From assembly GCA_021108405.1 (NCBI GenBank), contig JAIOQW010000336.1, positions 1,777 to 65,776 of the forward strand: a stretch of DNA of 64,000 nucleotides. Reading direction: 5' to 3'. Origin of the DNA: Methanosarcinales archaeon (GTDB lineage Archaea; Halobacteriota; Methanosarcinia; Methanosarcinales; Methanocomedenaceae). The notes beneath the pieces were generated by a model that was not told the DNA's origin, did not search any database, and saw only the letters and a program-made list of their open reading frames with translations. Position 1 is the first letter of the stretch. Each line of letters opens with the position of its first letter. The translations under genes and the position numbers were made by a program. Of this stretch, positions 5,186 through 54,000 are shown in pieces.

Positions 5186-5362
5186 GTTCTAGTTATATCC
5201 TTTAATATAATCCTCTTAATACAATTGTATACTACATTAATACTATTTAAATAAAAACTTTTTTCACCTATTTCACTACCTCACAAAATTTTTATATACA
5301 AATGGCACTATCCTAAAAACCAGTTATTTCAATAGAGGATTATTTAAATCGATAATTTCATA

Positions 5363-24419: not shown

Positions 24420-24547
24420 AGACGTTCATACGTTCATACGTTCAGATATCCGGTAGTCGGCAGCAGATCGATCTGATTTGGGACAACATATATCTGTACT
24501 GTGGGATGAGATAGAACCAGTCAATAAACAAAAAGAAGAGTATAGAA

Positions 24548-25393: not shown

Positions 25394-25671
25394 ACGCTAT
25401 AACTGTTGAAGCTGTCGATGTCAAATCTTCCAGATAACGAGACGAAACGATGCCTACAAGCACACTAATAGCAAAAGCGGCAATGATCTCGATAGCAGTT
25501 TTTTTCCGATGATCGATTCGGTGTTCCTCTAGTTGCAATTCTTTAGTTACCTTAGCGTCATGAGTTACGGTAACATCACCGCTTCTCTGCGTTCCTCAAC
25601 CTCATCACTTACAGCCTTTCTGTGAATCTCAGCCTGATCGAGCGATTCTGCCTGCAGGTGCACATTCAGGA

Positions 25672-25931
25672 CTAATCATAAACATTCTTTCGATGGCCTA
25701 TAGCAATAACCACTATTATAAGATGATTTTCCTGAATGTCATATAAAAATCGATACTTACCTACACGCAGTGACCTAAACCTTTGGACCTACCCTTCAAA
25801 GGCTTACCAGATTTAGGATACTTTAAAAGGTCCTTTAATCTTTCAACTATTCGCTTCTGAGAAACTCTATCTAGTTGAGAAAAAAACTTATCAAACTTAT
25901 CTGATAAAATTATACTGTACTTAACATCCAT
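25672..25931 (-). pseudogene. relE: RelE/ParE-family toxin with a frameshift
   Basis: Hand translation. ATG 25931 gives MDVKYSIILSDKFDKFFSQLDRVSQKRIVERLKDLLKYPKSGKPLKGRSKGLGHCV*, stopping at 25761-63. The C-terminal half RVGKYRFLYDIQENHLIIVVIAIGHRKNVYD* continues in another frame from 25767 to 25672. The start overlaps the antitoxin stop by 11 nt. Confidence 0.75.
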
Positions 25932-26160
25932 GTTTACTCAGAAAATCCTCAAATGTTATGAACCGTCCTTCTTTAATGTCTCTTAAACCTTCTTCGATAT
26001 TGTTCAAAGTTTCAGGGTCATTCATAATCTCAAGGGTGTCTATTGCTGATTCAATCTCGTCATCCAGTTTTTCAAGTGTTCCTAATAGAATATTGAGGGC
26101 ATTTTTATCCTTAATTATTGAATCCATGTAAATCGCCTGAATATAATATATTATCTTCAA
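25921..26160 (-). CDS. RelB/Phd-type antitoxin-like small protein
   Basis: The likely start is ATG 26127 (MDSIIKDKNALNILLGTLEKLDDEIESAIDTLEIMNDPETLNNIEEGLRDIKEGRFITFEDF). It is helical and acidic, and sits immediately upstream of and overlapping the RelE-like reading frame. Confidence 0.6.
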   Translation of the reverse strand: MKIIYYIQAIYMDSIIKDKNALNILLGTLEKLDDEIESAIDTLEIMNDPETLNNIEEGLRDIKEGRFITFEDFLSKHGC

Positions 26161-26302
26161 CTATTTCTAATTCTCCCTTGTTCAACTCACACACGGCAAT
26201 CTGTCCTCTCACATGAGCAAGCTGGAATCTGGAATATAAGCTACAAGTGGTAGGAATGCGAAGCATTGGCGTGGCCAGCAAAGTGATTGCCAGGAGATAA
26301 GA

Positions 26303-28957: not shown

Positions 28958-30890
28958 GGGTGCGGATGGCCATTATAATGGAATTTATATCAGTACAAAA
29001 AATCCACCAGCCCCATTTGGACAATACAACATTGTATCAAACAATACTGTATGCGGAAGCCAGGCAGAGGATATATTAATTGATGGTACTGCTGCTGGTA
29101 CAAACGATGTTAACGATAACACCTGCGACTTATCAATTGGTGGTGCCGGGAATGGTTGCCCCTGGAACTGCAACAACCTGGTATCAGTCTACTTTGATTT
29201 CGATGAAGATACATACTACAGTGATGAGCCTGAAAATTGCGAATGCGATATAGCTGGCAGTGGTAAGTGTGCATGCTGCAATCCGGGAATGTTCAATGGA
29301 AGCGATCCTGCTAAAGCATCATACGAAGCTTCATGCGATTGCCAGTGGACTGTCGGAAACGATCCCAATGACTGCAATGCAAGTATAACTCCATCACAAA
29401 CACAGACCTACAAGATCAGCGGTTACACAGACCCGGCAGCGGACACAGTTAATATTACGAACCTGAACAAGCCGGATGTTGTTGATGATAGAGCTGCTAA
29501 CATCGCAAATGATTTTTACGAAATCACACTTAACGTCTCGGATGAGGTTGAACCAGGTGATGTGCTCCGGATCACTGCATGTAAGGACGTTGGCAATTAC
29601 GAGAGTAACTGTAATGTAACAAATTATACGGTTGTGAATGCACCAGGAGAAGATACCAACGTCAACATCACATTAAACCACTACTGTCTGAACTACCATC
29701 CGGATTATCCGTTTAGCACATGGGAGCAAGATAACTGGAGTGGACCTGCTGTCATGCAGATGATGGTTAATCATTATAGATCTATGGAGCCGGCTCAATC
29801 GGATTTAAACGAAACAGGTATTGTACATAATCAGCCGTGCAACTCAGAACTTGAGTTCGTTGATCCGGACGGTATGAGGTGGACACTAAACGATATTCTG
29901 CATAATACCTCCTCCTATGGTGGTGGTAATTATGCGAATTACGATATCGGAAATTATGACAATCTTGATAGTGTACTCCACTACATCTGCTACTGGCAGC
30001 ATAAGGGACCTGGAGTGGCGCCGACTGATGGAGACTATTCCAACTGGATGGTAATTCGAGGAATCCATACCAGTGTAAATCCGTACCCGCAGTCTTCTGG
30101 TAGCTATGACATCTATGGATTCTGGATAAATGATCCAAATCCCACTGGCATTGGAGAGAACACCTATAAGACTGTGAATCAATGGACAAACGATTATTAC
30201 TCCACTCTCACAGGAGTAAATGTCGATGATAACTACCTGAACAGGTATGTTGCAGTATGTGAGCCACCGGTACAACCCGATTGCGAAATAAAGTTAGTAT
30301 CTTCGAAGCCAAGGTTTGATGATGCAATAACAACACCACTTGCTGAGATGACGCTCACAGCAAACAGCCCTGAACAAGTGAGTTATAAGAAGGTGCTCAG
30401 GAATGATAATTCACGTAAGATCGTAACGGCTGCGATCGATGGTGTTAATGAGGAACTTGTTCCATATGATGCTGCATTTGCAGAAGTTTTTGCAAAAACA
30501 GTTTCAGGTAAACCTAAGTTTGTCTCAGGCGACAACGAGAATTACTACATAATACCCTTTGATCTTTCTGTAAAGGAACGACTAAAGCCAATCAAAAAGT
30601 CAATCGCAGATATACGGAAGATCAAGCAGAAGACACTTGTCGTTGTGCTTATTGATACAGAGGATGGAAGCTTCAAGGAGGCTTCATGGGTCGAAGATCC
30701 TGTAGAGTACTTGCCTGTATCCGAAGCAAAGGCATTGCAGCTCATACACAATGAGGCAGATATATCAATAGAAAAACCGACGACTGAGCTTGTTCATAGG
30801 GATGCAAGCCCATACTATCCGGACTGGAAAGTTACGATCGGTGATAATGTCTTCTTCGTGAGCCAGGATGGAACGGTGAGCCAGGAATAA
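28950..30890 (+). pseudogene. 5'-truncated beta-helix surface protein (last rungs only) fused to a C-terminal C39-like domain region
   Basis: The frame of track ORF 29289..30890 is open upstream to ~28944 without a start. 28950-29170 encodes NTKGADGHYNGIYISTKNPPAPFGQYNIVSNNTVCGSQAEDILIDG...NDNTCD...GNGCPWNC, a close paralogue of 32036-32260 in ORF 31214..33163. It has no signal peptide and no N-terminal module. Confidence 0.6.
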
Positions 30891-31213: not shown

Positions 31214-33163
31214 ATGAATAGGAAAATATTATTTGAAATATTTCTTGTAATGATGATCATTATGGTAGGAAATGCAAGCGGCGAACTGCCTGCTTGCCCT
31301 GCACCCGGAGATACAGCAATTACAAGCAGTTGTCAACTCAATGATGACTATATTGTTACAGCAGGAAATGGTTATATTATCGGAGCAGATGATGTCGTCA
31401 TTGATGGTGCCGGTCATAAGATAAGTGGAGATGTTACAAGTGCAACATGCACTGCCGGCCAGACAGAGCCATGTGTAACACATTCCGGAATAGTCAACAA
31501 TGGGGGCTATAACAATGTGGTTATAAAGAATCTTGAAATAGAGAACTTCTGTACTGGTGTTGTGATGGGAATTTCCGTTGAGAATATGACAGTAGAGGAA
31601 TGCGAGATACATGATTGTGGTGCTTCTGATAGCGTAACACATGGCATACACATAGCAGGTGCATATAACTGCACTATAAAGGGAAATGAGATCTACAATC
31701 AAAAGGGAACAGCAGATGATACCTGTGGTGCAGGTGGAAACGGTATTTCATTACATGGAGTTACAGCAGATGAAAACTATGGAGGAGATTGGAACACCAT
31801 AATCTACAACAATCTTCATAACAATGCAAAATGTGGTCTCCATGCAAAATTTCAGTGTATGCATAACACAATCAGTCATAACCTGGTGACAGAAAATGCA
31901 AAATCAGGAATTATGCCAGAATGCAAGATGTCAAATTATTTCACTATCGAGTATAATACTATAACTGATAATGGTCCATATTATGGATTCTATACCCGTG
32001 GTCATGATAACGTTATTAGACATAATACCATTACCAATACCAAGGGTACGGATGGCCATTATAATGGAATTTATATCAGTACAAAAGGAGCACCAGGCCC
32101 ATTTGGAGAAAACAACATTGTATCAAACAATACTGTATGCGGAAGCCAGGAAGAGGATATAAAAATTGATGGTAATGCTGCTGATACAAACAATGTTAAC
32201 GATAACACCTGCGACTCGACCAGTGGTGGTACCGGGAATGGTTGTCCATATAACTGCAGCCAAACGCAATTATCACTATCAATTTCAGCCAGTCTAAGCG
32301 AAGTGAAAGTTGGTGAGGCTACGAATGTTACTTTTACAGTAACAAGCGATGACAACCCGGTTGAGGGTGCAAATGTAACTCTTAGCGGAAGTGCTGACGG
32401 TAGCGGCATTACAGAAGCCGATGGATCAGTGGTTATTTCAGTAAATGCAACCAGTGCAGGTACAATCACAGCCACAGCAATTAAGGAAAATTATACCAAC
32501 GGTACTACTACATTAACTGCCAAAGTGGATGAAATACACACACTATCAATTTCAGCCAGTCTAAGCGAAGTGAAAGTTGGTGAGGCTACGAATGTTACTT
32601 TTACAGTAACAAGCGATGACAACCCGGTTGAGGGTGCAAATGTAACTCTTAGCGGAAGTGCTGACGGTAGCGGCATTACAGAAGCCGATGGATCAGTGGT
32701 TATTTCAGTAAATGCAACCAGTGCAGGTACAATCACAGCCACAGCAAACAAGGATGGTTATACTGATGATACTACTACGTTGACTGCCAAACCAAAAGAA
32801 GATGGAGTCTCCTCATCTGTATCGCTGAGTGTGAATATCAAACCAACCATCTCATTGATAGTTACACCTGATAACATTGATTTTGGTGAACTTTATTCAG
32901 GTGAAACCAGTGATGTGCAATCCATGACTATTGAGAATAAAGGCGGATCCAGTTTCAATGTGACTACTCAGGTAAGTGATAATCCGGCAGAAGATACACT
33001 GTTCAAGAGCGGATTGCTGCTTGACTCAGCTATATGGAGTGATTATACTATATCCATAGATGCACAAGCATCAGTAATAGCTAATGGATCGCTTAATGTC
33101 CCTGGCGACTATATGGGAATTGGACAAAAACAAGGAGAAATAGTGTTCTGGGCGCAAGCCTAG
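31214..33163 (+). CDS. Secreted Cys-rich beta-helix protein (module 1) with two identical Ig-like repeats and a PapD/ASH-like C-terminal domain
   Basis: GGAGGA upstream and a signal peptide. Module motifs: HGIH, D.CGAGGNGISLH, NAKCGLHAKFQCMHN, GIMPECKMS, DGHYNGIYIS and NNTVCGSQEEDIKIDG. Two copies of LSISASLSEVKVGEATNVTFTVTSDDNPVEGANVTLSG... Confidence 0.75.
   Translation: MNRKILFEIFLVMMIIMVGNASGELPACPAPGDTAITSSCQLNDDYIVTAGNGYIIGADDVVIDGAGHKISGDVTSATCTAGQTEPCVTHSGIVNNGGYNNVVIKNLEIENFCTGVVMGISVENMTVEECEIHDCGASDSVTHGIHIAGAYNCTIKGNEIYNQKGTADDTCGAGGNGISLHGVTADENYGGDWNTIIYNNLHNNAKCGLHAKFQCMHNTISHNLVTENAKSGIMPECKMSNYFTIEYNTITDNGPYYGFYTRGHDNVIRHNTITNTKGTDGHYNGIYISTKGAPGPFGENNIVSNNTVCGSQEEDIKIDGNAADTNNVNDNTCDSTSGGTGNGCPYNCSQTQLSLSISASLSEVKVGEATNVTFTVTSDDNPVEGANVTLSGSADGSGITEADGSVVISVNATSAGTITATAIKENYTNGTTTLTAKVDEIHTLSISASLSEVKVGEATNVTFTVTSDDNPVEGANVTLSGSADGSGITEADGSVVISVNATSAGTITATANKDGYTDDTTTLTAKPKEDGVSSSVSLSVNIKPTISLIVTPDNIDFGELYSGETSDVQSMTIENKGGSSFNVTTQVSDNPAEDTLFKSGLLLDSAIWSDYTISIDAQASVIANGSLNVPGDYMGIGQKQGEIVFWAQA
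32274..32747 (+). repeat. Perfect 207-nt direct duplication at 267-nt period (Ig-like domain pair)
   Basis: 32274-32480 reads identical to 32541-32747 by eye. The 60-nt linkers differ. Confidence 0.9.
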
Positions 33164-33202
33164 AACTCCCTTTTTTTTTCGATAGAATGATGGTATGAAT
33201 TT

Positions 33203-33688
33203 ATGAAGAATATTATTATATTGTTAATAATAATTTTTTTTATATTAGAAACAGTTTCAGCTATCGGTATAGGCGTTACACCCGGGAATTTGAATTTTAG
33301 TACTCAAGTTGGCCTTTCCGATAGCAGATCGCTATATATAATCAATACAGGCACTGAGATTTCAAATTATAAAGTATACGTGGATGAAGATTATGCTAAC
33401 TGGTTTCATATTTCACCTGATAATTTCAGTCTGAATGCTAATGAGAATAAAGAAGTAATACTGAAATTCACACCGCCTATATCTTCAAAAGGAGACTTCG
33501 ATTTTACAGTATATTCAGTTTCTTCATCTCCATCTTCTGATTTCAGTGTAGGAAGCGGTATTAAAGTACCTGTTCAAGCCACAGTCTTTAATTCAGGAAT
33601 AATAGTAGCAGGATTAATACTGGTATTATTAATCATTGGAACTGGTGGTTATTGTATTTACAGAAAAAAAGGTAGAAATAATCAATAG
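33203..33688 (+). CDS. Small secreted PapD/ASH-like Ig-fold protein with C-terminal TM anchor
   Basis: Signal peptide. IGIGVTPGNLNFSTQVG...YIINTGTEISNYKVYVDEDYANWFHISPDNFSLNANENKEVILKFTPP. C-terminal IIVAGLILVLLIIGTGGYCIYRKKGRNNQ. Confidence 0.6.
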   Translation: MKNIIILLIIIFFILETVSAIGIGVTPGNLNFSTQVGLSDSRSLYIINTGTEISNYKVYVDEDYANWFHISPDNFSLNANENKEVILKFTPPISSKGDFDFTVYSVSSSPSSDFSVGSGIKVPVQATVFNSGIIVAGLILVLLIIGTGGYCIYRKKGRNNQ

Positions 33689-33700
33689 TCTTAAAAAAAG

Positions 33701-36700
33701 ATGAGAAAAAGTTTCATTCTTATGGCACTGGTGATAATATACTTTTCACTGATTGGAAGCTCCATAGCAGAGCATGCATGTGTTGTGGATGATGGCACCG
33801 CCTTCTTCTGTGGAGACACAGTAACAAAGAGTTGCACACTCAATGGAAGCATGACATGTCCGAATGCAGGATATGGATTGATCATAGGAGCAAAAGACGT
33901 TGTAATTAATGGTACAGGTTTTAAGATTATAGGAAATCGGGAAAATATTACTTGTAATAATAGTCAGACTGTGGCTGCAGAACATTCCGGAATTATCGAT
34001 ACTGATTATGGCAATGTCACAATAAAGAATCTGGAGATCGAAAATTTCTATACTGGAATCGCTTTAGGTAAATGTTCACTTGGTATTGATAACATAATAG
34101 TAACTGATTGCAAGATCCATGATTGCGGCAACTCTGATAGTATAACTCACGGTATCCATATGATAGGTGTGAATAACTGCACAATTAGCAAGAATGATAT
34201 CTATAACATTAATGGAACAGGGCCTGATTCTGGTTGTGGTGGGGGTGGAAATGGTATTTTTATGTATGGAGTAAGTAGAGACCATGGTAACTATAATAAT
34301 ATAATCCACAATAATTTTACTAATAATGTAAAAAGTGGCTTCTTTATGAAAATGATGTGCATGTACAATAATATTGGTTATAATAAAATGACTGGAAACG
34401 GTCAGGGAGGGGTTGTAATGATGTGCAAGGAATCAAATTATAATAATATTGAAGGTAATAATGCATCAGAAAATGATTGGTATGGTATCTTTACAGGTGG
34501 GAACAATAATACCATCAGATACAACACAATGACTAATAACGGGTACCATGGAATCGAATTGGGGAGAAGCGACGGGTCATACAATAACAAGTTGTATAAT
34601 AATGTAATTTGTGGAAATAACGATACAGATATAAAGATATATGGATCTGGCTCCGGAACTGCAGGTGGGAACAACACCTGTTGCACAACAATGCACTTTA
34701 ACGATGATGGAACTACTGGATGTAATTATGATTGTTCGCCTGCCCCGGATCTCACAATAATAGAAATGTCAGAAGATTTGATTGACTCAGAAGATAAGAT
34801 AAATAAGACATACAAGATCAACTATACAATCAGGAATAATGGTGATGAGGATGCAGAGGCAAGCAATACCTCGATCAAGATTGATGGAATAGAAGTTGCA
34901 GTCGATCCTGTTAAACCATTGAATGTGGGTGAGAAACACACCATCACAATCGGTCCTTTTAAAATCTCGGGAGGATACGACACAATCTGCCTCAATATCG
35001 ATAAAGATAATAATGTTTTTGAGAAGAGCAAGGAGTACAATAACTGTCTTGAGACTATACTCTTTCATCCTGAGATGCCTGACCTTGTGATATCAACAAA
35101 AACAGAGAATTGGATTACTGAAGGTTCAATATACAATATCACCTGCACGGTAGAGAATATCGGCACCACAAAAGCCAATGCGAGCAACACTTCTATCAGG
35201 ATAGATGAAATTGAGGTTGCAGTTGATCATGTTAACACATTAAACATTAATGAGAGCCATACCATTACATTCGGTCCTTTCATAATCACTGGAAATAACG
35301 ATACGGTTCTCATCTGTGCAGACTGTGATAATAATGTTGCAGAGAGCGATGAAACGAACAACTGTAAAGTGAATTCATTTGGAAACTCAAATGGAGATGA
35401 TAACAGGTCAACATGTTCGGATGGAACGCCTTATGGTGAATGCTCGGTAGATAAACCAAAGTACTGTGACAATGGAATTTTAATCGATGACTGTATTAGA
35501 TGCGGGTGTCAGGAAGGACAAAACTGTAACGAAGTATCAGGTTCTTGCTATGAACCAGGAGAAGGTGCCTGTATCGGTAAGACAAAGACCTTCTACTGCC
35601 AGGATACGGTAACAGAGTCCTGCACACTCAATGGAAATATGGTTTGTTCACCAGGACATGGCTTGATCATAAAAAAAGACGGGATCACGATTAACGGAAA
35701 TGGATACAAAATTACAGGGAGAAAATCCACTAAAGATTGTGCTAACTGTATGGAGACAGGTCCGACTGGAGGCCAAGAATCCGGGTTTTATTGTGGAATT
35801 TATAATAATGGCTATGACGATGTAACAATAGAGAATCTTGAGATCGAGGACTTCTGCACAGGAATTGGCCTTTTTGGAAATAGGCAGAGGATTATTGAGA
35901 ACAATAAAATAACCAATTGTAATATTCATAACAACGGATTTAAAACTACTTTCAATGGCCAGGATATGGTAACGCATGGTATCCATGCAAGCTTTGTACG
36001 GAATCTCGAGATAACCGGAAATGAGATTTACGAGAATGAGGGTACTGGTGATTTCTGTGGTGCAGGTGGAAATGGGATCTTCCTCTATGCAGGCGTGTCT
36101 GAAAATCATTGTGATATTAGCCACAATATATTATACAATAATGCGAAAGCAGGTTTCTGGACAAAGATGATGTTATCCAAGAGCACTATTACTCATAACG
36201 AGATATGGGGTAATGGAGATGGGTCAGGCATAGCTGATGATGTAAGAGGAGGGATCGTACTACGGTGTAAGAAATCGAGTGATAATCATATAGAATACAA
36301 TAACGTCCACGATCACGTTGCAGATGGATATGGTTACGGGATATATATTGGAGGTAGTAACAATACAATCGAGCACAATACCGTAACTTCAAATTCCGAA
36401 TCCGGGATCAATATGGGACGAAGCGATGGATCATTCGATAATAAGCTGTACAACAATCTCATTTGCGACAATGAAGTCGATATTGGTGTTACTACTGGTG
36501 TTACTGGAAATACCGGTGATGGAAACACCTGCAAAATAACAAATAATTATGACGATACCGGAACCACAAACTGCCTATATTCATGTCAGGGATCAAAACA
36601 AGAGAATGGTAGAAGGGATGTAGATTCAAAAAAGATGAAAGAAGAGGCTAAAGAAACACCGTTTGCCAAGGCTGGTGGAAATGGATCCATATCTTTAGCG

Positions 36701-36886
36701 AAGACAAAACCTGCACCTATAAAAGAAACTGAAAAGATTAACGGAGCTTCGTTATGGAAACCTGAGAAGGAGGATGGTATTTTTATAGATATCTCAATTC
36801 CATTTAAGATGGAGCATTTAGTTACATGCAGCTATTTCTTTATTACATCCATCATCGTGGTGATATTATTATGGCACCGTAAATGA
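33701..36886 (+). CDS. Cys-rich beta-helix protein with two modules (2 and 3) separated by two CARDB-like domains and a Cys-knot; C-terminal TM anchor
   Basis: Signal peptide. Both modules start with the C..F.C.DTVT.SCTLNG.M.C..G.GLII..(D/K)..ING.G.KI.G knot. CARDB-like PDL(T/V)I....Y.I.(Y/C)T(I/V).N.G...A..SNTSI(K/R)IDEIEVAVD appears twice (~34730-35380). The tail is SYFFITSIIVVILLWHRK. Confidence 0.75.
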   Translation: MRKSFILMALVIIYFSLIGSSIAEHACVVDDGTAFFCGDTVTKSCTLNGSMTCPNAGYGLIIGAKDVVINGTGFKIIGNRENITCNNSQTVAAEHSGIIDTDYGNVTIKNLEIENFYTGIALGKCSLGIDNIIVTDCKIHDCGNSDSITHGIHMIGVNNCTISKNDIYNINGTGPDSGCGGGGNGIFMYGVSRDHGNYNNIIHNNFTNNVKSGFFMKMMCMYNNIGYNKMTGNGQGGVVMMCKESNYNNIEGNNASENDWYGIFTGGNNNTIRYNTMTNNGYHGIELGRSDGSYNNKLYNNVICGNNDTDIKIYGSGSGTAGGNNTCCTTMHFNDDGTTGCNYDCSPAPDLTIIEMSEDLIDSEDKINKTYKINYTIRNNGDEDAEASNTSIKIDGIEVAVDPVKPLNVGEKHTITIGPFKISGGYDTICLNIDKDNNVFEKSKEYNNCLETILFHPEMPDLVISTKTENWITEGSIYNITCTVENIGTTKANASNTSIRIDEIEVAVDHVNTLNINESHTITFGPFIITGNNDTVLICADCDNNVAESDETNNCKVNSFGNSNGDDNRSTCSDGTPYGECSVDKPKYCDNGILIDDCIRCGCQEGQNCNEVSGSCYEPGEGACIGKTKTFYCQDTVTESCTLNGNMVCSPGHGLIIKKDGITINGNGYKITGRKSTKDCANCMETGPTGGQESGFYCGIYNNGYDDVTIENLEIEDFCTGIGLFGNRQRIIENNKITNCNIHNNGFKTTFNGQDMVTHGIHASFVRNLEITGNEIYENEGTGDFCGAGGNGIFLYAGVSENHCDISHNILYNNAKAGFWTKMMLSKSTITHNEIWGNGDGSGIADDVRGGIVLRCKKSSDNHIEYNNVHDHVADGYGYGIYIGGSNNTIEHNTVTSNSESGINMGRSDGSFDNKLYNNLICDNEVDIGVTTGVTGNTGDGNTCKITNNYDDTGTTNCLYSCQGSKQENGRRDVDSKKMKEEAKETPFAKAGGNGSISLAKTKPAPIKETEKINGASLWKPEKEDGIFIDISIPFKMEHLVTCSYFFITSIIVVILLWHRK

Positions 36887-36938
36887 TGTTAAAGATTGAT
36901 ATAAAGCGGGTTTATTATAAAATAGAAAGAGGTAAAAT

Positions 36939-38423
36939 ATGAAAAAAACAGTAAAAGGTCTCATTAGTATTGGAATTATAATAGTGTTTCTGGCAGGGTC
37001 TGTGAGTGCTAAGAACTGTGGTGATGGAATTGCTCCTTGTGATTGTGGTGATACAGTTGTATCAAACTGGACATTCACCGGTGATATTACCTGTCCTGCC
37101 GGACATGGCTTGATCATTGGATCAGATGGGATCACGATCGATGGGAAAGGATATACAATAACCGGATCCGCTCAATCGTGTGGGTATATTACTGAAACAG
37201 ATCCCTCACAGGGATATTGTGGAATTTATAATCCCGGATATGATAATATTGTGATAATAAATTTAGAAGTTGAGATGTTCTGCAACGGGATCGCACTTCA
37301 CGGCACAGGATCAAATCCTGTTGTTAGCAACTCAATAGATAATTGTAACATCCATCATAACGGAAATTCTACAGATGGTAAGAGCCATGGAATCCATGCA
37401 TGCTTTGTGAGTGAATGCATAATAAGCAATAACGATCTTCATCATAACACCGGGATAGGCGATGCCTGCGGTGATGGAGGAAATGGGATTTTTCTATATG
37501 CAGGACATGAGGAATATAAAGGCAACATTATAACCAAAAATGTTTTTCATGAGAACAGAAAAGGCGGCTTTTTTGCAAAGATGATGCTCCAGCATGCAGA
37601 GATAACACAAAACCATGCCTATGCAAACGGTCAGGGCGGGATTATATTACGATGCAAGAAATCCAGCAACAATCTCATCGAAAATAACAATGCATCGCAA
37701 AACCACGGGGATGGGATCTTTATAGGTGGTAAGAATAACACGATCAGTAAGAACATCGTAGAGAATAACATGGCTGGTTTCAAGATCAGTTCGACTGATG
37801 TCGTCGGTGATGGCGATGGGATCGATATGGGACGAAGCGATGGATCATTCGGTAATAAGTTGCATGATAATACAGTCTGTGGAAATGAGGATATGGATAT
37901 AGATACTTTCGGACCCGATTCAGGAACAATTGGGAATGAGAACACGTGTGAGACTACGGATTATTATAATGATGAGGATGTTACAGGATGCAGTTATTCA
38001 TGTATCGATCCGGAAGAGCTTGCCAGAATGCTAACCTCACAGGGCTGGATGATTTATGGCACATCCGGGGATGAGTGGTGTATCAAACAGAAAGAAGTGT
38101 TTGGAGATGCTTTTAGGAATCTGAATTATATCAACTGTGATGAAAATGAAGAGGCATGTATAAATGCCAATATTAAAAACATTCCTTGCTGGATTTCACC
38201 TAATAAAACACATTACCCTGGCTATTATGATCTGAACAGACTTTCAGAGCTTACGAAAGAATATCATAGAGCAGTTTCACCTTCAGAAAATCTACATGGG
38301 TCAAATCAGACGTCTTCCGGATCGAATTCTCTGGGTGGTTCTGTGGGTTGTTTTGAATTGATACTTACATTAATTGTGATATCTATCTTTCTGGTGGGGC
38401 AAAAAGGAAAAAACAATAGGTGA
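36939..38423 (+). CDS. Cys-rich beta-helix protein (module 4) fused to a thioredoxin-like domain and a C-terminal TM anchor
   Basis: Signal peptide. Knot: CGDGIAPCDCGDTVVSNWTFTGDITCPAGHGLIIGSDGITIDGKGYTITG. The C-terminal ~38000-38260 encodes GWMIYGTSGDEWCIKQKEVFGDAFRNLNYINCDENEEACINANIKNIPCWISPN, a paralogue of ORF 42353..42799. Confidence 0.75.
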   Translation: MKKTVKGLISIGIIIVFLAGSVSAKNCGDGIAPCDCGDTVVSNWTFTGDITCPAGHGLIIGSDGITIDGKGYTITGSAQSCGYITETDPSQGYCGIYNPGYDNIVIINLEVEMFCNGIALHGTGSNPVVSNSIDNCNIHHNGNSTDGKSHGIHACFVSECIISNNDLHHNTGIGDACGDGGNGIFLYAGHEEYKGNIITKNVFHENRKGGFFAKMMLQHAEITQNHAYANGQGGIILRCKKSSNNLIENNNASQNHGDGIFIGGKNNTISKNIVENNMAGFKISSTDVVGDGDGIDMGRSDGSFGNKLHDNTVCGNEDMDIDTFGPDSGTIGNENTCETTDYYNDEDVTGCSYSCIDPEELARMLTSQGWMIYGTSGDEWCIKQKEVFGDAFRNLNYINCDENEEACINANIKNIPCWISPNKTHYPGYYDLNRLSELTKEYHRAVSPSENLHGSNQTSSGSNSLGGSVGCFELILTLIVISIFLVGQKGKNNR

Positions 38424-38427
38424 TGTA

Positions 38428-40311
38428 TTGGTATTTATTGTAAAAAGATTCTATATTGTAGTTGTATCTTTAATGATTTACTCAATCTTTATGGTTGGAA
38501 ATGGAAGTGCGGGATGTATCGGTGAGATAACAGGCACAGACTATGGATGTGGTGATACTGTAATAGAAAGCTGCACATTCAATGAGAATCTAAGGTGTCC
38601 AAATGGTGGATTGATCATCGGAGCAGACGGGATCATTATTAATGGAAACGGATACACACTCGTTGGTACAGGTAGTGGACAGGAAGGAATTTATAATGAA
38701 AATTGTAATGATGTAACGATAAAAAATATAAATATCCGTGAATTCTGTTTTGGGATTTATTTTACAGGTGTAAATAACTGTAGTATAATAAATAACAGCA
38801 TAAGCTATGGTACTGGAAGCGGGATCTGGCTTCATAGTTCATTATACAACGAGATAATTGGCAATCGTATATATCACGGCGATGAGGGTCATGGGATCTT
38901 GTTATCATCTTTTTCACATAGAAATACTCTGGAATCTAACAACATAACAACCTTAAACGGAATGGGGATCTGTATAGAGGAATCGGATGGAACCAGGCTT
39001 TTTTGTAATTATATCTGTAATAATAAACAGGGTGATATCGTTGTTAACGGATCTGAAAACAGAGGTGTTAATAATACCTGCGGGATAACAGATAATTATA
39101 ATGATACACAAGGAACACTCTGTACCTATTCCTGCCCTTCATCCATGGATTTTACGGATGAAAGACCGATAAGTGGGGAAAAAAGTGATAGTAGTTGTGG
39201 ATGTGTATCTGATAAAGACCCATCAAAGATATTTGGCTGTGGGGATATAGTGAACGAAAGCTGCACATTTAATTGCAATCTTGAATGTGAAAAGGGACAC
39301 GGCCTGATCATAGGTGCTAACAATATAACAGTGGATGGGAATGGGTATACACTGGATGGTCTTCTTGTTGGTACGTGTGTTTTGGATGAGCGGTCGGGGA
39401 TATATAATAAGGGATATGATGACTTCACGGTAAAAGATCTTGAGATCAAGAACTTTTGCAATGGAATATACTTCGAAGGAGAGATAAAAGATACCATCTA
39501 CCAAAACACGATAGATAGCTGTAATATCCACCATAACGGCAATACAGGCAGTGGGGATACACAGACACATGGAATTAAGATGCGTTATGTTTATAACAGC
39601 ACGATAAGTAGTAATGAGGTACACCATAATCTTGGAAGTGGAGATGGGTGTGAGAATGGTGGTAATGGTATATTTTTCTATGCCGGTGATTACAACCTCA
39701 TTACGAATAACACTGTTTCTGAAAACACAAAAGCAGGCATCTTCACAAAGATGAAGCCGAAGTACAACAACATCTCCTCTAATATTGTGAAAGAGAATGG
39801 TCAGGGAGGAATTGTACTAAGATGCAAGCTATCGAGCTTGTTCATTATCGAGAACAATATTGCATCCGATAATAAGGGTGTGGGGATTTATGTAGGCGGT
39901 GAAGGTAACACACTTAAGAATAACACTGCGATGAATAATAAGAACGGTTCGGATTATGGATGGAGTGGCACGGGAATCTGGATGGATAGGGAAGCATACA
40001 ACACTACACTTATCTCAAACAATGTTACAGGGAATGATTATATGGATATGAAAGTAAAGGAAGGGCTCATCGGGATAGAAGGCTCAAATAATACCTATGA
40101 AAAATCTTCAAAATATGAGGATAATTCCAGGCAGAGCGAGATTATCGAAGGAAAGAAGGTGGAGTGTAAATCAAATAATTGGAGTAACGACATTACACCA
40201 GAAAGATCCGTATTGCCATCTGTAAATATTACGCCATTCATGGCCACGTTTCTTATCCTTCTTTTATTAATGTTTGTTTTTTTTGGTTATCTGCAAGGGA
40301 AAAAAAATTAA
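38428..40311 (+). CDS. Cys-rich beta-helix protein with two modules (5, degenerate; 6, complete) and a C-terminal TM anchor
   Basis: TTG start 4 nt after the previous stop. Knots: GCIGEITGTDYGCGDTVIESCTFNENLRCPNGGLIIGADGIIINGNGYTLVG and FGCGDIVNESCTFNCNLECEKGHGLIIGANNITVDGNGYTLDG. The tail is FMATFLILLLLMFVFFGYLQGKKN. Confidence 0.75.
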   Translation: MVFIVKRFYIVVVSLMIYSIFMVGNGSAGCIGEITGTDYGCGDTVIESCTFNENLRCPNGGLIIGADGIIINGNGYTLVGTGSGQEGIYNENCNDVTIKNINIREFCFGIYFTGVNNCSIINNSISYGTGSGIWLHSSLYNEIIGNRIYHGDEGHGILLSSFSHRNTLESNNITTLNGMGICIEESDGTRLFCNYICNNKQGDIVVNGSENRGVNNTCGITDNYNDTQGTLCTYSCPSSMDFTDERPISGEKSDSSCGCVSDKDPSKIFGCGDIVNESCTFNCNLECEKGHGLIIGANNITVDGNGYTLDGLLVGTCVLDERSGIYNKGYDDFTVKDLEIKNFCNGIYFEGEIKDTIYQNTIDSCNIHHNGNTGSGDTQTHGIKMRYVYNSTISSNEVHHNLGSGDGCENGGNGIFFYAGDYNLITNNTVSENTKAGIFTKMKPKYNNISSNIVKENGQGGIVLRCKLSSLFIIENNIASDNKGVGIYVGGEGNTLKNNTAMNNKNGSDYGWSGTGIWMDREAYNTTLISNNVTGNDYMDMKVKEGLIGIEGSNNTYEKSSKYEDNSRQSEIIEGKKVECKSNNWSNDITPERSVLPSVNITPFMATFLILLLLMFVFFGYLQGKKN

Positions 40312-41432
40312 TGAACATTACAAGAGTGATATTACTGATTTTTATATTATTTATCGCATCATCACAAGCCAGTGCAAATGAGGATGCAGAGGTGCTTGAA
40401 TCCTATGCGGAAAAGCTTGATGACGTTGGAAAATACGAAGATGCAGGTAGATTGTACGATAAAATTGCACTCCATTATGAGAACGAGAGCGATTGGGAGA
40501 ATGCATCAGGATATTATTTGCTCGCCGCAGAAAATTTTAAGAATGTGGAAATGTACAAAACTGTAGGGGCATCATATATAAATGCCGGAAATTGTTACTA
40601 TACAATACATGATTGTGATAACGCATCTAAATACTATTTACTGGGTGCAGAAAGTTATAAAAAATCTGATCCGGGGTATGATGATGAATGGATAGAAAAA
40701 AAGAATAATCAGTGCAAAGAAGGGGTGCTGATGCGCGGGCTTGCAATGTTCGGAATTCTATTCGGCATGATAAAATTCGCAAGTAAAGCCGCATTTGGGC
40801 TTGGTTTTGCAAATGTCGGAAGAAGAGAGATCTTAGCGGTTGCAGATTTTTACTTCCTTATAGCGTTTTTGATGAGCTTTTTTATCAGTATGATGCGTGA
40901 GACACTGTACGAATTCATTAATATACTTTTTAGTTTTGGCATGGCATTCGGTGTGTTTCAATTTATACTGGCATTTCTGCTGCTTACACTTGGATTTTAC
41001 ACGTTAAAAAAGTGGAAGGAGAAAAAAAACGTCTCAAAGAAGACCTTCCTCTTGATGATACTTCCATGTCCTGTGTCGCTGGTAACGATCTTTATGACGT
41101 GTGCGTTTTTTATAATCACAGGAATGGAAGCTATAAAGGTTGGAATTCTCGTAGGAGGTATATTTTCTCTTTCAATTATCGGAATAACCATGCTCATACA
41201 AAGATCAAAACTCGATAAGACCCCTTCAAACCTTGGAGCTGTTATGATATTCTTTGGAATGCTCTATCTGCTCTCTATCATATTTATACCAGCTTACCTC
41301 GCGGTATATGATATGAATATCGTAGTCGAAGGCTTTTCCGGAAAAAATATGATGTCCGGATATCTTCTTGCAGCATTTTTGATTTTTATAGGGTTTATTT
41401 ACGGACAAATAATTAACAAAAGGATGACATAA
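40311..41432 (+). CDS. Membrane protein: signal peptide, extracytoplasmic TPR/SNAP-like repeat domain, then ~7 TM segments (DUF2162-like predicted transporter?)
   Basis: Start shares a base with the upstream stop (TAATG). Three A..YY.LAAE.(F/Y)K-type helical repeats. The polytopic region contains LMILPCPVSLVTIFMTCAFFI. The DUF2162 assignment rests on memory of its co-occurrence with MotA/ExbB plus DUF2149 genes in methanogens. Confidence 0.5.
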   Translation: MNITRVILLIFILFIASSQASANEDAEVLESYAEKLDDVGKYEDAGRLYDKIALHYENESDWENASGYYLLAAENFKNVEMYKTVGASYINAGNCYYTIHDCDNASKYYLLGAESYKKSDPGYDDEWIEKKNNQCKEGVLMRGLAMFGILFGMIKFASKAAFGLGFANVGRREILAVADFYFLIAFLMSFFISMMRETLYEFINILFSFGMAFGVFQFILAFLLLTLGFYTLKKWKEKKNVSKKTFLLMILPCPVSLVTIFMTCAFFIITGMEAIKVGILVGGIFSLSIIGITMLIQRSKLDKTPSNLGAVMIFFGMLYLLSIIFIPAYLAVYDMNIVVEGFSGKNMMSGYLLAAFLIFIGFIYGQIINKRMT

Positions 41433-41434
41433 AC

Positions 41435-41995
41435 ATGTATTCTGAACTGATGAAAATATTTTTAGCTATAAGTAATGCACTATTATATCCCGTGTTGATT
41501 CTGCTTATTGTACTCATTATACTCTGCTTTATAGATCTCGGAGTACTTTTATCTGAATATCCGAAAAGAAGCAAAAATTTTGATGATAAGTTTAAAGGAG
41601 GTCATTTAAGCAGGTTTTACAATGTACTGAATGAAGTTATATTAAAATATCGTGATGATGAGGACCTCTGTACGATTGAGATAGAAAAACTGCTCCGTGA
41701 TTGCATGGCTGAAATCTCAGTGAAACTGGAGCGAATACGCCTGATGATTAGAATTGGTCCAATGCTTGGTCTTATGGGAACGCTCATACCGCTCGGTCCT
41801 GCATTATTGGGATTAAGCGCGGGAAATATCGAACAGCTTGCAAATAATCTTGTGATTGCATTTACATCAACTGTAATTGGACTTTTTATTAGTGCAGTCT
41901 CGCTTGTTGTGACCACTGTGAGGCGGCGATGGTATAAAGAGGATATGAAAGATATGGAGTATATAGCCGAGAAAATGATAAGGGGATCAGAATGA
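41435..41995 (+). CDS. MotA/TolQ/ExbB-family proton-channel protein
   Basis: Three TM segments. IGPMLGLMGTLIPLGPALLGL....LANNLVIAFTSTVIGLFISAVSLVV parallels the ExbB/TolQ signature (ap.lGLlGTv.G ... AL.tTa.GL..aip). Confidence 0.7.
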   Translation: MYSELMKIFLAISNALLYPVLILLIVLIILCFIDLGVLLSEYPKRSKNFDDKFKGGHLSRFYNVLNEVILKYRDDEDLCTIEIEKLLRDCMAEISVKLERIRLMIRIGPMLGLMGTLIPLGPALLGLSAGNIEQLANNLVIAFTSTVIGLFISAVSLVVTTVRRRWYKEDMKDMEYIAEKMIRGSE

Positions 41996-42333
41996 ATAAA
42001 AAAATCAGATTTATGGGAAAGAAAAGAGAGATTGAAGAGGAAGACGACGATCCGATGGCAGGCATTGCGAATCTATTTGATGTAGCGATCATTTTTGCCG
42101 TAGCTCTAATGGTTGCACTCGTGACGCACAACAGCTTGCCAGAGCTTATCTCTGATGAGAACTTCACGATCGTGAAGAATCCCGGAACTGAGGATATGGA
42201 GATTATTATAAAGGAGGGCGAAAAGATAGAGATTCAGAAGATCACAAACGAAACGATGAAAGGTACCGGAGAGAAACTGGGTACGACATACCTCCTGCCA
42301 AACGGGGAGGTTGTCTATGTGGTGGAAGATTAA
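41992..42333 (+). CDS. ExbD/TolR-like single-TM protein (DUF2149-type)
   Basis: ATGA overlap with the ExbB-like gene. An acidic N-terminus is followed by one TM helix with a buried Asp (GIANLFDVAIIFAVALMVALV), analogous to ExbD FIDVMLVLL. A small beta-rich C-terminal domain follows. Confidence 0.6.
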   Translation: MNKKIRFMGKKREIEEEDDDPMAGIANLFDVAIIFAVALMVALVTHNSLPELISDENFTIVKNPGTEDMEIIIKEGEKIEIQKITNETMKGTGEKLGTTYLLPNGEVVYVVED

Positions 42334-42352: not shown

Positions 42353-42799
42353 TTATCTTCTTCTTATCAACAAAACGATAAGAATAGCTATTAGACTATA
42401 CATAAATCCAAAACCGGCTGTATTATTATTTGCTGATGGATCAAAATGTTCTGCCCGATAGTCTTTCATTATCTCATTAAGCTCTGTCAAATTATAGTAC
42501 CCCGGATAGAATGTGCCGTTTGGTGAAACCCAGGATGGAATACTTTCGATGCCAGCATCGATGCATACCTGCATATTTTCGTTGCAGTTAATATATGTCA
42601 GATTTGTAAAAGAATCACCAAATTCTTCTTTTTGTTTGATACACCACGGGCATTGATCTGTGCCGTATAATACCCATCCATTATTATTTAATTCACAAGC
42701 CAGAACTTCAGCTGTGGTTTCTTCTGCATATACCATTCCTGTTAACAATACTAAAAGTACTGTGAAACTAATTATCAGTATAATATAAATTTTTTCCAT
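42353..42799 (-). CDS. Extracytoplasmic thioredoxin-like protein (VKOR-associated Trx type), CPWC active site, C-terminal TM anchor
   Basis: Signal peptide. GWVLYGTDQCPWCIKQKEEFGDSFTNLTYINCNENMQVCIDAGIESIPSWVSPNG.FYPGY resembles the Trx-like domain fused to bacterial VKOR homologues (YGA.WCPHC..QK..FG....YVEC.....C...GI..YPTW). The tail is GFGFMYSLIAILIVLLIRRR. Confidence 0.6.
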   Translation of the reverse strand: MEKIYIILIISFTVLLVLLTGMVYAEETTAEVLACELNNNGWVLYGTDQCPWCIKQKEEFGDSFTNLTYINCNENMQVCIDAGIESIPSWVSPNGTFYPGYYNLTELNEIMKDYRAEHFDPSANNNTAGFGFMYSLIAILIVLLIRRR

Positions 42800-51087: not shown

Positions 51088-54000
51088 TTACTTACCCTTA
51101 TGCCACATTACCAGATACGCTACCAATATCAGCACAGTGATGGTTAATCTACAATCAAACCCGGGTACTTCTTCGTTCTCATCCGGTGGCTCGGGTGCTC
51201 GTACAATTGTCATAATACTGTTAGTATTATCCATTTCATTTTCAAAGTCTAAAGAAAAAACATTTACCGTGACATTATATATACCCGCATCCGCATCTGT
51301 TATATTTAAAGTGACATTCCAAGAAGCGCCAATACCAAGATCAAGTATAAATGACCTGTTTAATTCTGCTACATCTGCACTATCCGAATTGTTGACTGTA
51401 AGTTGAAAGCTGTCTATGAAATTTCCTGTATTCTTTAACGTTAGTACATATGTTGCATTTATATTCGGTTTGGTTATTTGTTCAGCCGGCGAAGAGATAG
51501 TTGCATTATAAACTCCTTTTATAACCGAGTTGTTCTGGTATGAGATAGCATAATTCGATAAATTATCATACATTTCCACACATAGATTATACCTGCCATA
51601 CGCCGCGGTTGTATTGATATGAAAACTCTCGTTTACACAAAGCCCGGTTCCACCCAACACACATGTATTGGTTATTTTATTTATAACTGCAGTGCTGTTC
51701 TTTATTGTGATAGTGTAGTTCTTCGGAGTTAATTCCGTATAGGTGAAGTTGACCCAAAACATTTTTCCTCCCATTCCATAAAAAGGAGATAATTTAGTTG
51801 GTACATTTATTATAACATCCGGAGGTGTGACATTTGTTAGCATAAGAGGATGGTAATCACCACCGTTTAGGATTTCTCCGGAAGAATTATAGGGGGTAAG
51901 GGTATCTCCCAGTCCATCTTTATCAGTATCAATGCCAGTATAGTCTGACCAGTAGTTGCCAGCAAGATGCAAACCTCCAATGATGTTTAATCCTGCTGTT
52001 TTTGTGATGTTCCATATGTTATTATAGCTTCCTGAAGTATTAGCGTTGTGTATGTTGTTGAAGTGGTTGTTGTAGATGAAGTTGCAGTACGATTCCTTTA
52101 GATAAATACCGTAATGATTAGAGTTTATTGTACAATTTTCTATTATTGAATAATTAGTATGAACAAGCAACACACCTTCGTAATTCATTGTTAGTGTCAA
52201 ATCTTTAATAGTAGTATTCGTTGCGTTTACGACTGCTACATAGCCGGCATCATCCGGAATTACTTTATCTTGTTCATCTATTAAGTAATAGATCGGCTTT
52301 TCATCAACAATGTTACTTGTATCAATATTTTGTATGTATCCGGAAAGATTGCTACTATAAATACCAAAGTTGTATGAATTTTGGGACATAGTATTGTCTG
52401 AAAGCGTATTTTGGCTTGATTCGTATAGATAGATACCATAACCGAAGTCACTTATGTCATCTATTCTAATATTAGAATTTGCTGTGTTGTTCGTAAGCGT
52501 ATTATTGCCTGAATTATTCAGGTAGATGCCGTAGCCGAAGTTATGGTTATTATTACAATCTCCTGTAGAATGATTGTTGTTATTGTGGCTATAACCACAG
52601 GTACCGCATTTTCCACAATTTAAATTTGCAGTACAGTTTGTAAGAGTATTGTTGCTTGATGAATACAGGTAGATACCATAACCGTAGCCATAACCTCCAT
52701 CACCACCACCATCACCACCATCACCACCTGAGCCATTGTTTGAGCTTATATTGTTGTTTACCAGCGTATTATTACTCGAAGAATATAGATAGATGCCATA
52801 ACCATAGCCATCGCCACCACCTACCCCATAATAAGAATCATAATCACTACTATCACCACCTGAGCCATTATTTGAGCTTATATTGTTGTTTACCAGCGTA
52901 TTATTACTCGAAGAATATAGATATATGCCATAACCATAGCCATCGCCACCATCACCACCTAGCCCATAATAAGAATCATAATCACTACCATCACCACCTG
53001 AGCCATTGTTTGAGCTTATATTGTTGTTTACCAGCGTATTATTACTCGAAGAATATAGATAGATGCCATAACCATAGCCATCGCCACCACCTACCCCATA
53101 ATAAGAATCATAATCACTACTATCACCACCTGAGCCATTATTTGAGCTTATATTGTTGTTTACCAGCATATTATTACTCGAAGAATGTAGATAGATACCA
53201 TAACCATAGCCATGGCCGCCCCTACCAATATTACAGTTATACTCGTTTTTGCATGATCCGCTGGTGCCTCCTTTTCCTCCATTTAAGTGTGCAATATTGT
53301 TCGAAAGCGTATTATTGTTTGAAAAAAATAAATAAATGCCATGCCCGAACCCATCATTGCCATCACCACTACAGGAAACAGACCCACCAGAAAAATCTGG
53401 ACCGTTGGTACCACCTTTTCCACTATTCAAATCTGCTGTATTGTTCGTAAGTGAATTATTACTCGAATAATGTAGGTATACACCATAACCGTAGCCTTCA
53501 CCCCCATTACTACCACAACTACCATGTGAAGGACCTCCGCTGCCGTTACCTCCGCGGCCTTTGTTTGATCTCATATTGTTATTTTCAAGTATATTATCAT
53601 TTGAATAATTCAGGTAGATGCCATAACCGTAGCCATAGCCACCGCCATAGGCACTGTATGAGCTGCAAACGCCATTTTCACCATTTCCGCTATTCAAATT
53701 TGCTGTGTTGTTCGCAAGAGTATTATTGCTTGAAGAATCCAGGAGGATACCATAGCCGTAGCCATTGCCGCTACTACTGCCCATCCCAAGATCACCTCTT
53801 CCGCCTCTTCCATTATTTAAGCTTGCAGTGTTGTTCGTAAGTGTGTTGTTACTTGAAGAATACAGGTAGATACCGTAACCGTAGCCATCACCGGCCCAGG
53901 TGCCACGATACACATCACAATCACCATCTCCACCTCTTCCATTATTCAAGATTGCAGTATTGTTCGCAAGCGTATTGTTGCTCGAAGAATATAGGTAAAT

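Follow-up and report, generated by a model that had tools for sequence, protein, structure and literature searches.

ExbB/ExbD, TolQ/TolR and MotA/MotB units are, to our knowledge, the sole known converters of proton-motive force (PMF) to mechanical work beyond the cytoplasmic membrane, and the well-studied ones that we know of are all bacterial and have the cell wall or the outer membrane as their target. The window examined here, a 64,000-nucleotide stretch from a Methanosarcinales archaeon (GenBank assembly GCA_021108405.1, contig JAIOQW010000336.1, positions 1,777 to 65,776 of the forward strand), encodes a candidate relative of these units. The module is composed of a DUF2162 membrane protein of 373 amino acids (aa) (40311..41432, + strand), a minimal MotA/TolQ/ExbB-type subunit of 186 aa (41435..41995, +) and a single-pass DUF2149 subunit of 113 aa (41992..42333, +), and it directly follows the gene of a NosD-like double β-helix protein of 627 aa (38428..40311, +). 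With a rough probability of one half, this module is a proton-driven ExbB/ExbD-like motor that powers an extracellular effector tethered to the membrane, and does so in the absence of TonB, TolA and an outer membrane.

Among described systems, the HmuT-HmuU-HmuV module encoded in the hmu operon (hmuYRSTUV) of Bacteroidota comes closest; examples are PG1554-1556 of P. gingivalis and BT_0491-0493 of B. thetaiotaomicron. HmuS is annotated as a CobN-like protein, HmuT as a hypothetical membrane protein, HmuU as a MotA/TolQ/ExbB protein and HmuV as a DUF2149 protein. Papers up to 2026 describe HmuS as a membrane-bound heme de-chelatase (PMC12583661, PMC13227078). HmuU and HmuV have been drawn as the power source of HmuR (PMC12583661), and Hmu reviews propose that HmuTUV carries heme or iron over the inner membrane (PMC12094164, PMC13227078). 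Many orphan "CobN" genes in methanogens are called unexplained (PMC12583661), and archaea lie outside the coverage of a survey of 5:2 motors (PMC12505986). A literature search returned no paper tying DUF2162, DUF2149 or ExbB-like genes to archaea, methane-oxidising (ANME) archaea or β-helix proteins.

The original prediction stated that trios of MotA/ExbB, DUF2149 and DUF2162 genes occur in methanogens, and this is correct. It missed the identity of the trio with HmuT/U/V and the canonical CobN/HmuS-type partner, the latter of which reframes the function. The Methanoculleus bourgensis locus reads DUF2162 (238 aa)-MotA_ExbB-DUF2149-CobN (1587 aa)-CorA, and an Aquimarina locus reads 227-aa membrane protein-MotA_ExbB-DUF2149-CobN (1619 aa)-TonB-dependent receptor-HmuY; the same order of T, U, V and CobN is found in Porphyromonas and others. 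Comparison of the plain archaeal DUF2162 profile with that of Bacteroidota HmuT by hhalign gives a probability of 95.9 % (E 5.8e-9, 220 columns), against about 2 % (E 0.02) for controls with an unrelated membrane family. Because the gene order and families are equal and the DUF2162 and HmuT profiles match, the trio is assigned, on sequence grounds, to the known but uncharacterised HmuT/U/V module. The V proteins are 47-58 % identical, the Asp and Thr residues discussed below are invariant in both groups, and in both the client protein is held by a C-terminal transmembrane (TM) helix. The window differs from the Bacteroidota loci in lacking CobN/HmuS (by a Pfam scan of open reading frames (ORFs) of at least 150 aa), HmuR and HmuY, in the exported TPR head and intramembrane PCPV…C motif of its DUF2162 protein, in its NosD-like client and in its host, an archaeon without an outer membrane. 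HmuR and HmuY occur in none of the archaeal loci. Powering of HmuR cannot be the general role of HmuU and HmuV, because archaeal loci keep the module without a TonB-dependent receptor.

The three ORFs of the trio lie on the + strand exactly where they had been predicted, and identical proteins are found in a metagenome-assembled genome of a Methanosarcinales archaeon. The predicted ATGA overlap at the junction of the MotA-like gene with that of DUF2149 is confirmed, and ahead of the start lies a purine-rich AAGGGG. The TAATG originally placed between the DUF2162 and MotA-like genes is not at that junction, which reads TAAacATG with a 2-nt spacer; TAATG is instead the junction of the β-helix gene with the DUF2162 gene, where the stop codon overlaps the start codon.

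The middle gene of the trio encodes the HmuU equivalent. Its MotA/TolQ/ExbB identity is borne out by PF01618, which matches residues 73-175 (E 9e-12; 45.3 bits against a cut-off of 22.9), and the motifs GPMLGLMGTLIPLGP and FTSTVIGLF are found in the protein. The proposed three-TM layout also holds, with TM1 (5-44) and TM3 (137-163) strong by hydropathy, TM2 placed by alignment and the loop from TM1 to TM2 predicted to be cytoplasmic; TM2 (~106-128, GPMLGLMGTLIPLGP) is Gly/Pro-rich and under the hydropathy threshold, yet aligns to TolQ TM2. Residues T116 (codon 41780-41782) and T146 (41870-41872) are invariant in 63/63 family members and align with T145/T178 of TolQ and T148/T181 of ExbB; they are the predicted channel threonines. 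Sequence searches of the PDB gave weak matches to TolQ and MotA, and the NCBIfam equivalog cut-offs were not reached for MotA (17 bits vs 340) or TolQ (15.3 vs 221). By profile, threonines and topology the protein is classed in the MotA_ExbB family, as a putative A subunit that is much shorter than its ExbB/TolQ counterparts (186 aa vs 230-244).

The last gene of the trio encodes the HmuV equivalent (PF09919, E 1.3e-28). DUF2149 has one TM helix (21-50) after a basic/acidic cytoplasmic N-terminus and is oriented N-in, as are ExbD and TolR, and its gene is adjacent to and overlaps that of the A subunit, a further likeness to ExbB-ExbD and TolQ-TolR. Asp30 (codon 42079-42081) sits within the helix in NLFDVAIIF, in the context P-x5-NLFD. 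This residue is invariant in 120/120 of the best homologues (archaea and Bacteroidota, 47-100 % identical) and in 105/105 unique translations from loci of archaea, Bacteroidota, Planctomycetota, Verrucomicrobiota, Myxococcota and Omnitrophota. P21, N27, L28, F29 and the outside motif VKNPG are also invariant among the 120 homologues. In the best local hhalign alignment, which is non-significant, D30 falls on D25 of ExbD and D23 of TolR. The original analogy to ExbD/TolR therefore stands for the single TM helix and its conserved Asp at the D25/D23 position and falls for family membership, which is undetectable. Homology of DUF2149 to ExbD/TolR was pursued through Pfam, hhalign against ExbD, TolR and MotB, and a PDB sequence search, and was rejected, TM-helix resemblance being the most that was found. 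SH3-like sequence matches are weak and non-significant, and Foldseek finds nothing significant in the PDB for the structural model. DUF2149 may thus work like ExbD/TolR, with no demonstrable place in that family. One 180-aa member (P0008, on a 75-kb contig) carries an N-terminal partial duplication of DUF2149 with two DPM…NLFD TM segments.

The first gene of the trio encodes the HmuT equivalent, a third, polytopic subunit that is always present in modules of this type and has no counterpart in ExbB-ExbD or TolQ-TolR. The protein begins with a signal-like helix (residues 1-23), followed by a head (~26-135) and about seven TM helices, and PF09930 matches residues 144-364 (E 8.9e-38). The exported TPR/SNAP-like head, the TM count and the L-P-C-P-V-S...C segment had all been recognised originally and are upheld. 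Within the head, residues 47-121 give weak matches to SNAP (E 9.5e-6, barely over the gathering score) and TPR_12. P252-C253-P254-V255 and C264, on one helix, are invariant among 27 homologues, and the headed family also keeps the head cysteines C95, C102 and C135 as well as K155/K159 in TM1. Plain archaeal DUF2162 proteins have PCPxC…C at the equivalent site, and profile comparison finds no cysteines there in bacterial HmuT. An AlphaFold2 (AF2) model has a mean predicted local distance difference test (pLDDT) of 69, with 86-93 in the head and 55-80 in the TM part; the modelled head is composed of five or six antiparallel helices running on into TM1. Foldseek against the PDB returned TPR/SNAP-type matches to the head only (E >= 7.6e-3), and the membrane part matched no fold, transporter folds included. 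A DsbD/CcdA-like thiol-electron conduit was considered because of the PCPxC motif and the neighbouring thioredoxin-like proteins; it was rejected, with hhalign against E. coli DsbD at E 0.8-0.9 and no Pfam DsbD match. The headed form is rare: 90 % clustering leaves 28 proteins, and among 1.84 billion representatives only a few 50 % clusters have it, out of roughly 70 for DUF2162 as a whole. Its hosts are Methanosarcinales/ANME-2, ANME-1/Methanophagales and Syntropharchaeales. In one locus from a Methanobacteriota metagenome-assembled genome (MAG), L019, a 363-aa ORF (4297-5388) beside a CobN gene reads from DUF2162 (residues 4-198, last helix absent) into a MotA-like region (193-361); the read-through may be a genuine fusion or else an artefact of assembly or deletion, and a single MAG is weak evidence. 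Long MotA-like "fusions" in L047, L067, L021 and others are artefacts of longest-ORF calling.

The partner of the module divides into two kinds. ORFs of the fetched loci, which come mostly from MAGs or metagenomes and in which the longest ORF was called, were classed by jackhmmer and HMMs seeded from the window, Methanoculleus and Aquimarina loci, and neighbours were counted for 100 non-redundant MotA-like/DUF2149 pairs from archaea and at least four bacterial phyla. The trio is together in every locus examined, as co-inheritance would predict. CobN adjoins 43/45 evaluable bacterial pairs and 14/18 evaluable archaeal pairs with plain DUF2162. Among evaluable archaeal pairs with headed DUF2162, a β-helix gene is the neighbour in 13/13 and CobN in 0/13. 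When metagenomes were scanned separately with the headed DUF2162 alignment as seed, the division was the same: a β-helix gene lies directly upstream, and CobN is absent, in all 18 headed loci with upstream sequence, and CobN is present without a β-helix gene in all 10 plain loci with downstream sequence. The suggestion that TM-anchored β-helix proteins belong to the system is thereby strongly supported, an orthologous double β-helix gene being always directly upstream. The best match of the 627-aa protein is the gene directly upstream of DUF2162 in 8/8 related loci of the β-helix type, at 372-773 bits against at most 257 for paralogues. The linkage is orthologous synteny and goes beyond mere β-helix richness of the genome.

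On one archaeal contig (L010 5803-21329; also L011) a headed β-helix module is followed, 6 kb farther downstream, by a module of the plain DUF2162-MotA-DUF2149-CobN kind, so that a single genome contains both as paralogous systems. A tree built from MotA-like and DUF2149 sequences, concatenated, groups the β-helix-linked modules as one clade inside the archaeal CobN-linked ones. The window module is accordingly described as a derived archaeal paralogue (ANME-2, ANME-1, Altiarchaeota) in which CobN was replaced by a NosD-like protein and a head was gained, and this archaeal variant, with its new client and new head domain, is previously undescribed. Several further arrangements were seen. The modules of two Altiarchaeota loci (L014, L018) are 65-68 % identical to the Methanosarcinales one and have unheaded DUF2162 proteins of 254-259 aa; either the genes were transferred horizontally across distant archaeal phyla or the contigs were mis-binned. 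Extra pairs of a MotA-like protein (252-270 aa, with a longer cytoplasmic loop) and DUF2149 occur in L016 (2807-4020), L017 (2206-3370) and L116 (6646-7830). No DUF2162 gene accompanies these pairs, which lie directly behind very large β-helix genes, on the upstream side of the headed module, and make up a small clade of their own. In Methanoculleus a gene for a CorA-type Mg/Co/Ni channel directly follows the CobN-like gene (L005 16903-17844, L006 15372-16331), a hint that the CobN-linked system of archaea may have to do with divalent metals.

The 627-aa partner (Pfam Beta_helix E 1.9e-35, NosD E 4.7e-27) starts with a signal peptide, continues with a pair of Cys-capped β-helix modules and ends in a TM anchor that is conserved (…TPFMATFLILLLLMFVFFGYLQGKKN). 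Among solved structures, NosD 7o0y alone resembles it in sequence (E 7.7e-12). It is called NosD-like and not NosD because it scores under the NCBIfam subfamily cut-off (48.6 vs 300). NosD itself is a periplasmic β-helix protein on an energy-supplying membrane complex, NosDFY (PMC8457098). The window shares with that system an extracytoplasmic NosD-type β-helix at the cytoplasmic membrane that would be coupled to an energy-converting complex. It differs in that the energy source would be a MotA/ExbB-type PMF unit in place of the NosF/NosY ABC ATPase, and in that the client is built of two β-helix modules and carries a C-terminal TM anchor itself. The cluster genes and scanned neighbours include no nosZ, nosL, nosF, nosY, ABC ATPase or ABC-2 permease gene. 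By analogy with NosD, the β-helix client probably handles a metal or cofactor.

The two client families are unrelated and are built on a similar plan. Both the β-helix clients and the CobN-like proteins of archaea and bacteria have an N-terminal signal peptide or helix and a large outside body, and in both one TM helix near the C-terminus is followed by a short tail of basic residues. The anchor of the β-helix partners (…V/A-T-P-L-M-A-T-L-I-V…F-G-Y-L/S-R-K) is strikingly conserved, and many archaeal CobN partners have a similar end (…S-T-P-L-I-P…A-G-F-W-L-K-R-R), as does the one in L019 (…A-P-L-I-G…F-G-Y-L-R-R-R). Counted in C-terminal tails as [TA]P[LIFM]-x15-22-G[FYL]-x0-3-[KR], the motif occurs in 22/22 β-helix partners (19 classed automatically; three reclassified by eye because their gap to DUF2162 was over the threshold) and in 9/14 archaeal CobN partners. 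It is missing from all 29 other β-helix proteins and from all 179 other ORFs of at least 300 aa. The informative part of this result is the match across two unrelated client families.

A mechanism can be proposed that draws on the domain identities, residue conservation, HmuTUV homology, topology, strict synteny, partner swap and shared anchor motif set out above. The HmuU-like and DUF2149 proteins would most likely form an ExbB/ExbD-type proton-conducting unit, in which protonation and deprotonation of Asp30 facing T116 and T146 would convert the PMF into movement. DUF2162 would be the constant third membrane subunit. The ancestral client would be a giant extracytoplasmic CobN/HmuS-type (de)chelatase held on one C-terminal TM helix. 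In the clade of the window this client would have been exchanged for the NosD-like double β-helix protein with retention of a similar C-terminal anchor, and DUF2162 would have gained its exported TPR head, plausibly to hold the new client. The module would provide energy at the outer face of the cytoplasmic membrane, where ATP is unavailable, and would power conformational work in the tethered client by way of DUF2162 and/or the C-terminal helix of the client. It would replace the AAA+ (CobST/ChlID) or ABC (NosFY) ATPases that drive related proteins elsewhere.

Class I chelatases also bear comparison with the module. CobN and ChlH are cytoplasmic proteins driven by AAA+ subunits in CobNST and ChlHID, and the canonical client of the module, absent from the window, belongs to the same CobN/ChlH family. 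The module-linked CobN-like proteins differ in being exported and membrane-anchored, with no adjacent AAA+ genes, and we infer that a PMF module stands in place of the AAA+ motor. Other non-flagellar 5:2 motors (GldLM/PorLM, AglRQS, ZorAB; "GIT" clade of PMC12505986) resemble the window module in putting MotA/ExbB-type units with lineage-specific appendages to tasks other than flagellar rotation. They differ in that all are bacterial, and in that a DUF2162-type subunit is present in none of them, nor is an enzyme-like client with a C-terminal anchor. The window module in turn differs from ExbB-ExbD and TolQ-TolR in having no TonB/TolA partner, outer membrane or peptidoglycan. As the original prediction had expected, the scanned window ORFs include no TonB or TolA; they also include no TonB-dependent receptor and no component of an outer membrane. 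A broader reading, in which HmuTUV-type modules are a distinct, cross-domain class of ExbB/ExbD-like proton motors that are independent of TonB/TolA and of an outer membrane, grip the C-terminal TM helix of an exported client through the DUF2162 adaptor, drive the work of this client outside the cell and replace AAA+ or ABC ATPases, is put forward tentatively, as a minority expectation.

Several points weigh against a motor acting on a tethered client. The 5:2 assembly, proton conduction and client contact are inferred only. PF02472 does not match the window protein at E<=0.1 and matches 0/30 DUF2149 members at E<=10, and hhalign of DUF2149 against E. coli ExbD/TolR aligns the TM helix only, at a non-significant E of 0.04-0.08. 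The AF2 model of DUF2149 is of low confidence (pLDDT 62.8; helix 21-48 and five strands); the modelled outside domain is small and all-β with no helix past residue 53 (pLDDT 53-66 there), unlike ExbD. The de-chelatase activity of HmuS was seen in vitro with membranes and NADH, and a need for HmuTUV is unstated (PMC12583661, PMC13227078). β-helix surface proteins are very abundant in this genome, with seven in the window, which raises the prior for accidental adjacency; orthology and translational coupling speak against such an accident. The tree is a distance-based, neighbour-joining tree without bootstrap support. The two Altiarchaeota loci (L014, L018) combine a β-helix partner with an unheaded DUF2162, so the head is not obligatory. 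Five of the 14 archaeal CobN partners (four from Methanosarcinaceae and one with a truncated end) do not have the TPL part of the anchor, and the motif was defined after the partners had been inspected, which makes its statistics partly circular.

The strongest competitor to the tethered-client motor, though an unlikely one at perhaps half its weight, is a PMF-energised importer. DUF2162 would here be a permease for a metal ion, a tetrapyrrole or a de-metallated product, energised or gated by the MotA-like and DUF2149 proteins, and the surface protein would capture or process the substrate outside. The polytopic nature of DUF2162 fits such a role, its invariant intramembrane P-C-P-V…C (PCPxC…C in plain archaeal proteins) resembles soft-metal sites, and CorA adjoins the CobN gene in Methanoculleus. 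The Hmu reviews cited above propose passage of heme or iron through HmuTUV across the inner membrane. The Cys motif is, however, absent from Bacteroidota HmuT, the DUF2162 model matches no solved transporter fold and similarity to DsbD/CcdA was not found (E 0.8). We know of no transporter class that draws its power from an ExbB/ExbD-type unit of the same membrane, and an importer leaves the C-terminal anchor common to unrelated clients unexplained.

A role in envelope biogenesis or tethering is less likely again. The motor would then drive export, folding, insertion or anchoring of the Cys-rich β-helix and CobN-like proteins, with their disulfides handled by neighbouring thioredoxin-like CxxC proteins, or would alternatively serve S-layer and matrix upkeep; GldLM/PorLM (type IX secretion) and Tol-Pal would be its analogues. 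It is consistent with clients that are large, secreted, Cys-rich and membrane-anchored, with the recurrence of exported CxxC thioredoxin-like modules across loci, with cohesin/dockerin surface proteins beside related loci, and with a sub-threshold match of the TPR head to PorW/SprE of the type IX secretion system (E 0.0011, 17.7 bits vs 250). One specific β-helix orthologue is nonetheless strictly linked to the module despite many paralogues per genome, and bacteria that already have general secretion systems use the module for one enzyme only, HmuS. No secretion-component homologue was detected among the proteins scanned.

A classical Ton-like function, in which the pair energises only a TonB-type protein and an outer-membrane receptor and the archaeal copies are relics or unrelated to their neighbours, is very improbable. 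The Bacteroidota module does share operons with a TonB-dependent receptor and HmuY, and HmuU/HmuV have been depicted as powering HmuR. Archaeal loci that have no TonB-dependent receptor, TonB or outer membrane nevertheless keep the trio, its invariant catalytic residues and a client that is conserved, CobN and not a receptor is the neighbour that universally accompanies the module, and the NCBIfam ExbB/TolQ/MotA equivalog scores are far under their cut-offs. For archaea the present data contradict this explanation. An anti-phage or conflict system of the Zorya type is the least probable of all: ZorAB is a MotAB-like unit recruited for defence (mentioned in PMC12505986), but the five proteins give no PADLOC match (E<=0.01), nuclease or effector genes are absent nearby, and the synteny with a metabolic enzyme is housekeeping-like and kept across phyla.

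The module and its client are the last genes of a longer series. Three genes upstream (31214..36886, +) encode a 649-aa β-helix/Ig-like protein, a 161-aa protein and a 1061-aa β-helix and CARDB protein by Pfam, and are tightly spaced, with 39, 12 and 52 nt among and after them. The next gene (36939..38423, +) encodes a 494-aa β-helix protein (Pfam Beta_helix/NosD) with a C-terminal thioredoxin-like module and a PGF-CTERM-like end, and stops 4 nt ahead of the 627-aa partner gene. Gaps between the genes from 31214 to 42333 range from -4 to 52 nt, and a gap of 323 nt lies ahead of 31214; because of this tight packing behind a wide gap, the region is suggested to be one eight-gene operon. Orthologues of the 494-aa gene, of 485-498 aa, hold the equal position in L007, L012 and L097-L099, and it is a conserved fifth gene of the ANME-2-type loci. 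The 649-aa, 161-aa and 1061-aa genes probably share the operon and belong with less certainty to the system; for the 1061-aa protein, L012 contains an orthologue (951 bits).

Convergent to the cluster lies a gene for an exported thioredoxin-like protein of 148 aa (42353..42799, - strand) with an intact CPWC and a PGF-CTERM-like anchor; its Thioredoxin_2 and PGF-CTERM matches are weak and each under its cut-off. The 148-aa protein shares 55 % identity with a homologous module at the C-terminus of the 494-aa protein, where the motif is degenerate, its first Cys being lost (DEWC). CxxC is kept in fused or free thioredoxin-like copies of related loci (CPWC/CSWC/CGWC/CEWC). The thioredoxin-like modules suggest an extracellular thiol-redox or metal-handling component of the system.

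NosD/β-helix surface proteins are unusually numerous in the genome (in the window also at 66-2879, 7839-11660 and, on the - strand, 51088-54576), and one window β-helix protein carries a C-terminal dockerin domain. Cohesin- and dockerin-domain proteins flank related loci (L007-L009 1-4741 and 12267-13619), which suggests a cohesin-dockerin surface scaffold in these archaea. Three ORFs have no Pfam match at E<=0.001, namely 29289-30890 (+, 533 aa), which sits just upstream of the β-helix operon, 61010-62962 (-, 650 aa) and 5755-6492 (-, 245 aa). A 97-nt tRNA at 16761-16857 (+) is identified by Rfam (58 bits) and unreported by ARAGORN; it neighbours a tRNA-Met (16593-16667) and is probably an intron-containing archaeal tRNA. 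The region 24400-26300 has a GC content of 0.476 against about 0.39 and no ORF of at least 150 aa, with small ORFs of 128 and 141 aa only; no repeats and no Rfam match were found in the GC-rich gap at 24.4-26.2 kb.

An archaeal relative of the ExbB/ExbD-type units with intact Asp and Thr residues would mean that their principle operates in a single-membrane cell. The strict link to CobN/HmuS over two domains suggests that it is the de-chelatase, and not the TonB-dependent receptor, on which HmuT/U/V act, which would bear on how the medically relevant heme-iron pathway of Bacteroidota is dissected. The module also offers a possible explanation for the orphan "CobN" genes of methanogens (PMC12583661). 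If the cross-domain motor class is real, its clients would be CobN/HmuS-type proteins in methanogens and many bacteria and NosD-like proteins in ANME-type archaea, and the window would hold a natural client swap with the anchor helix as the coupling element. As a natural experiment, this swap in methane-oxidising archaea points to the C-terminal anchor and DUF2162 as the parts through which coupling may take place.

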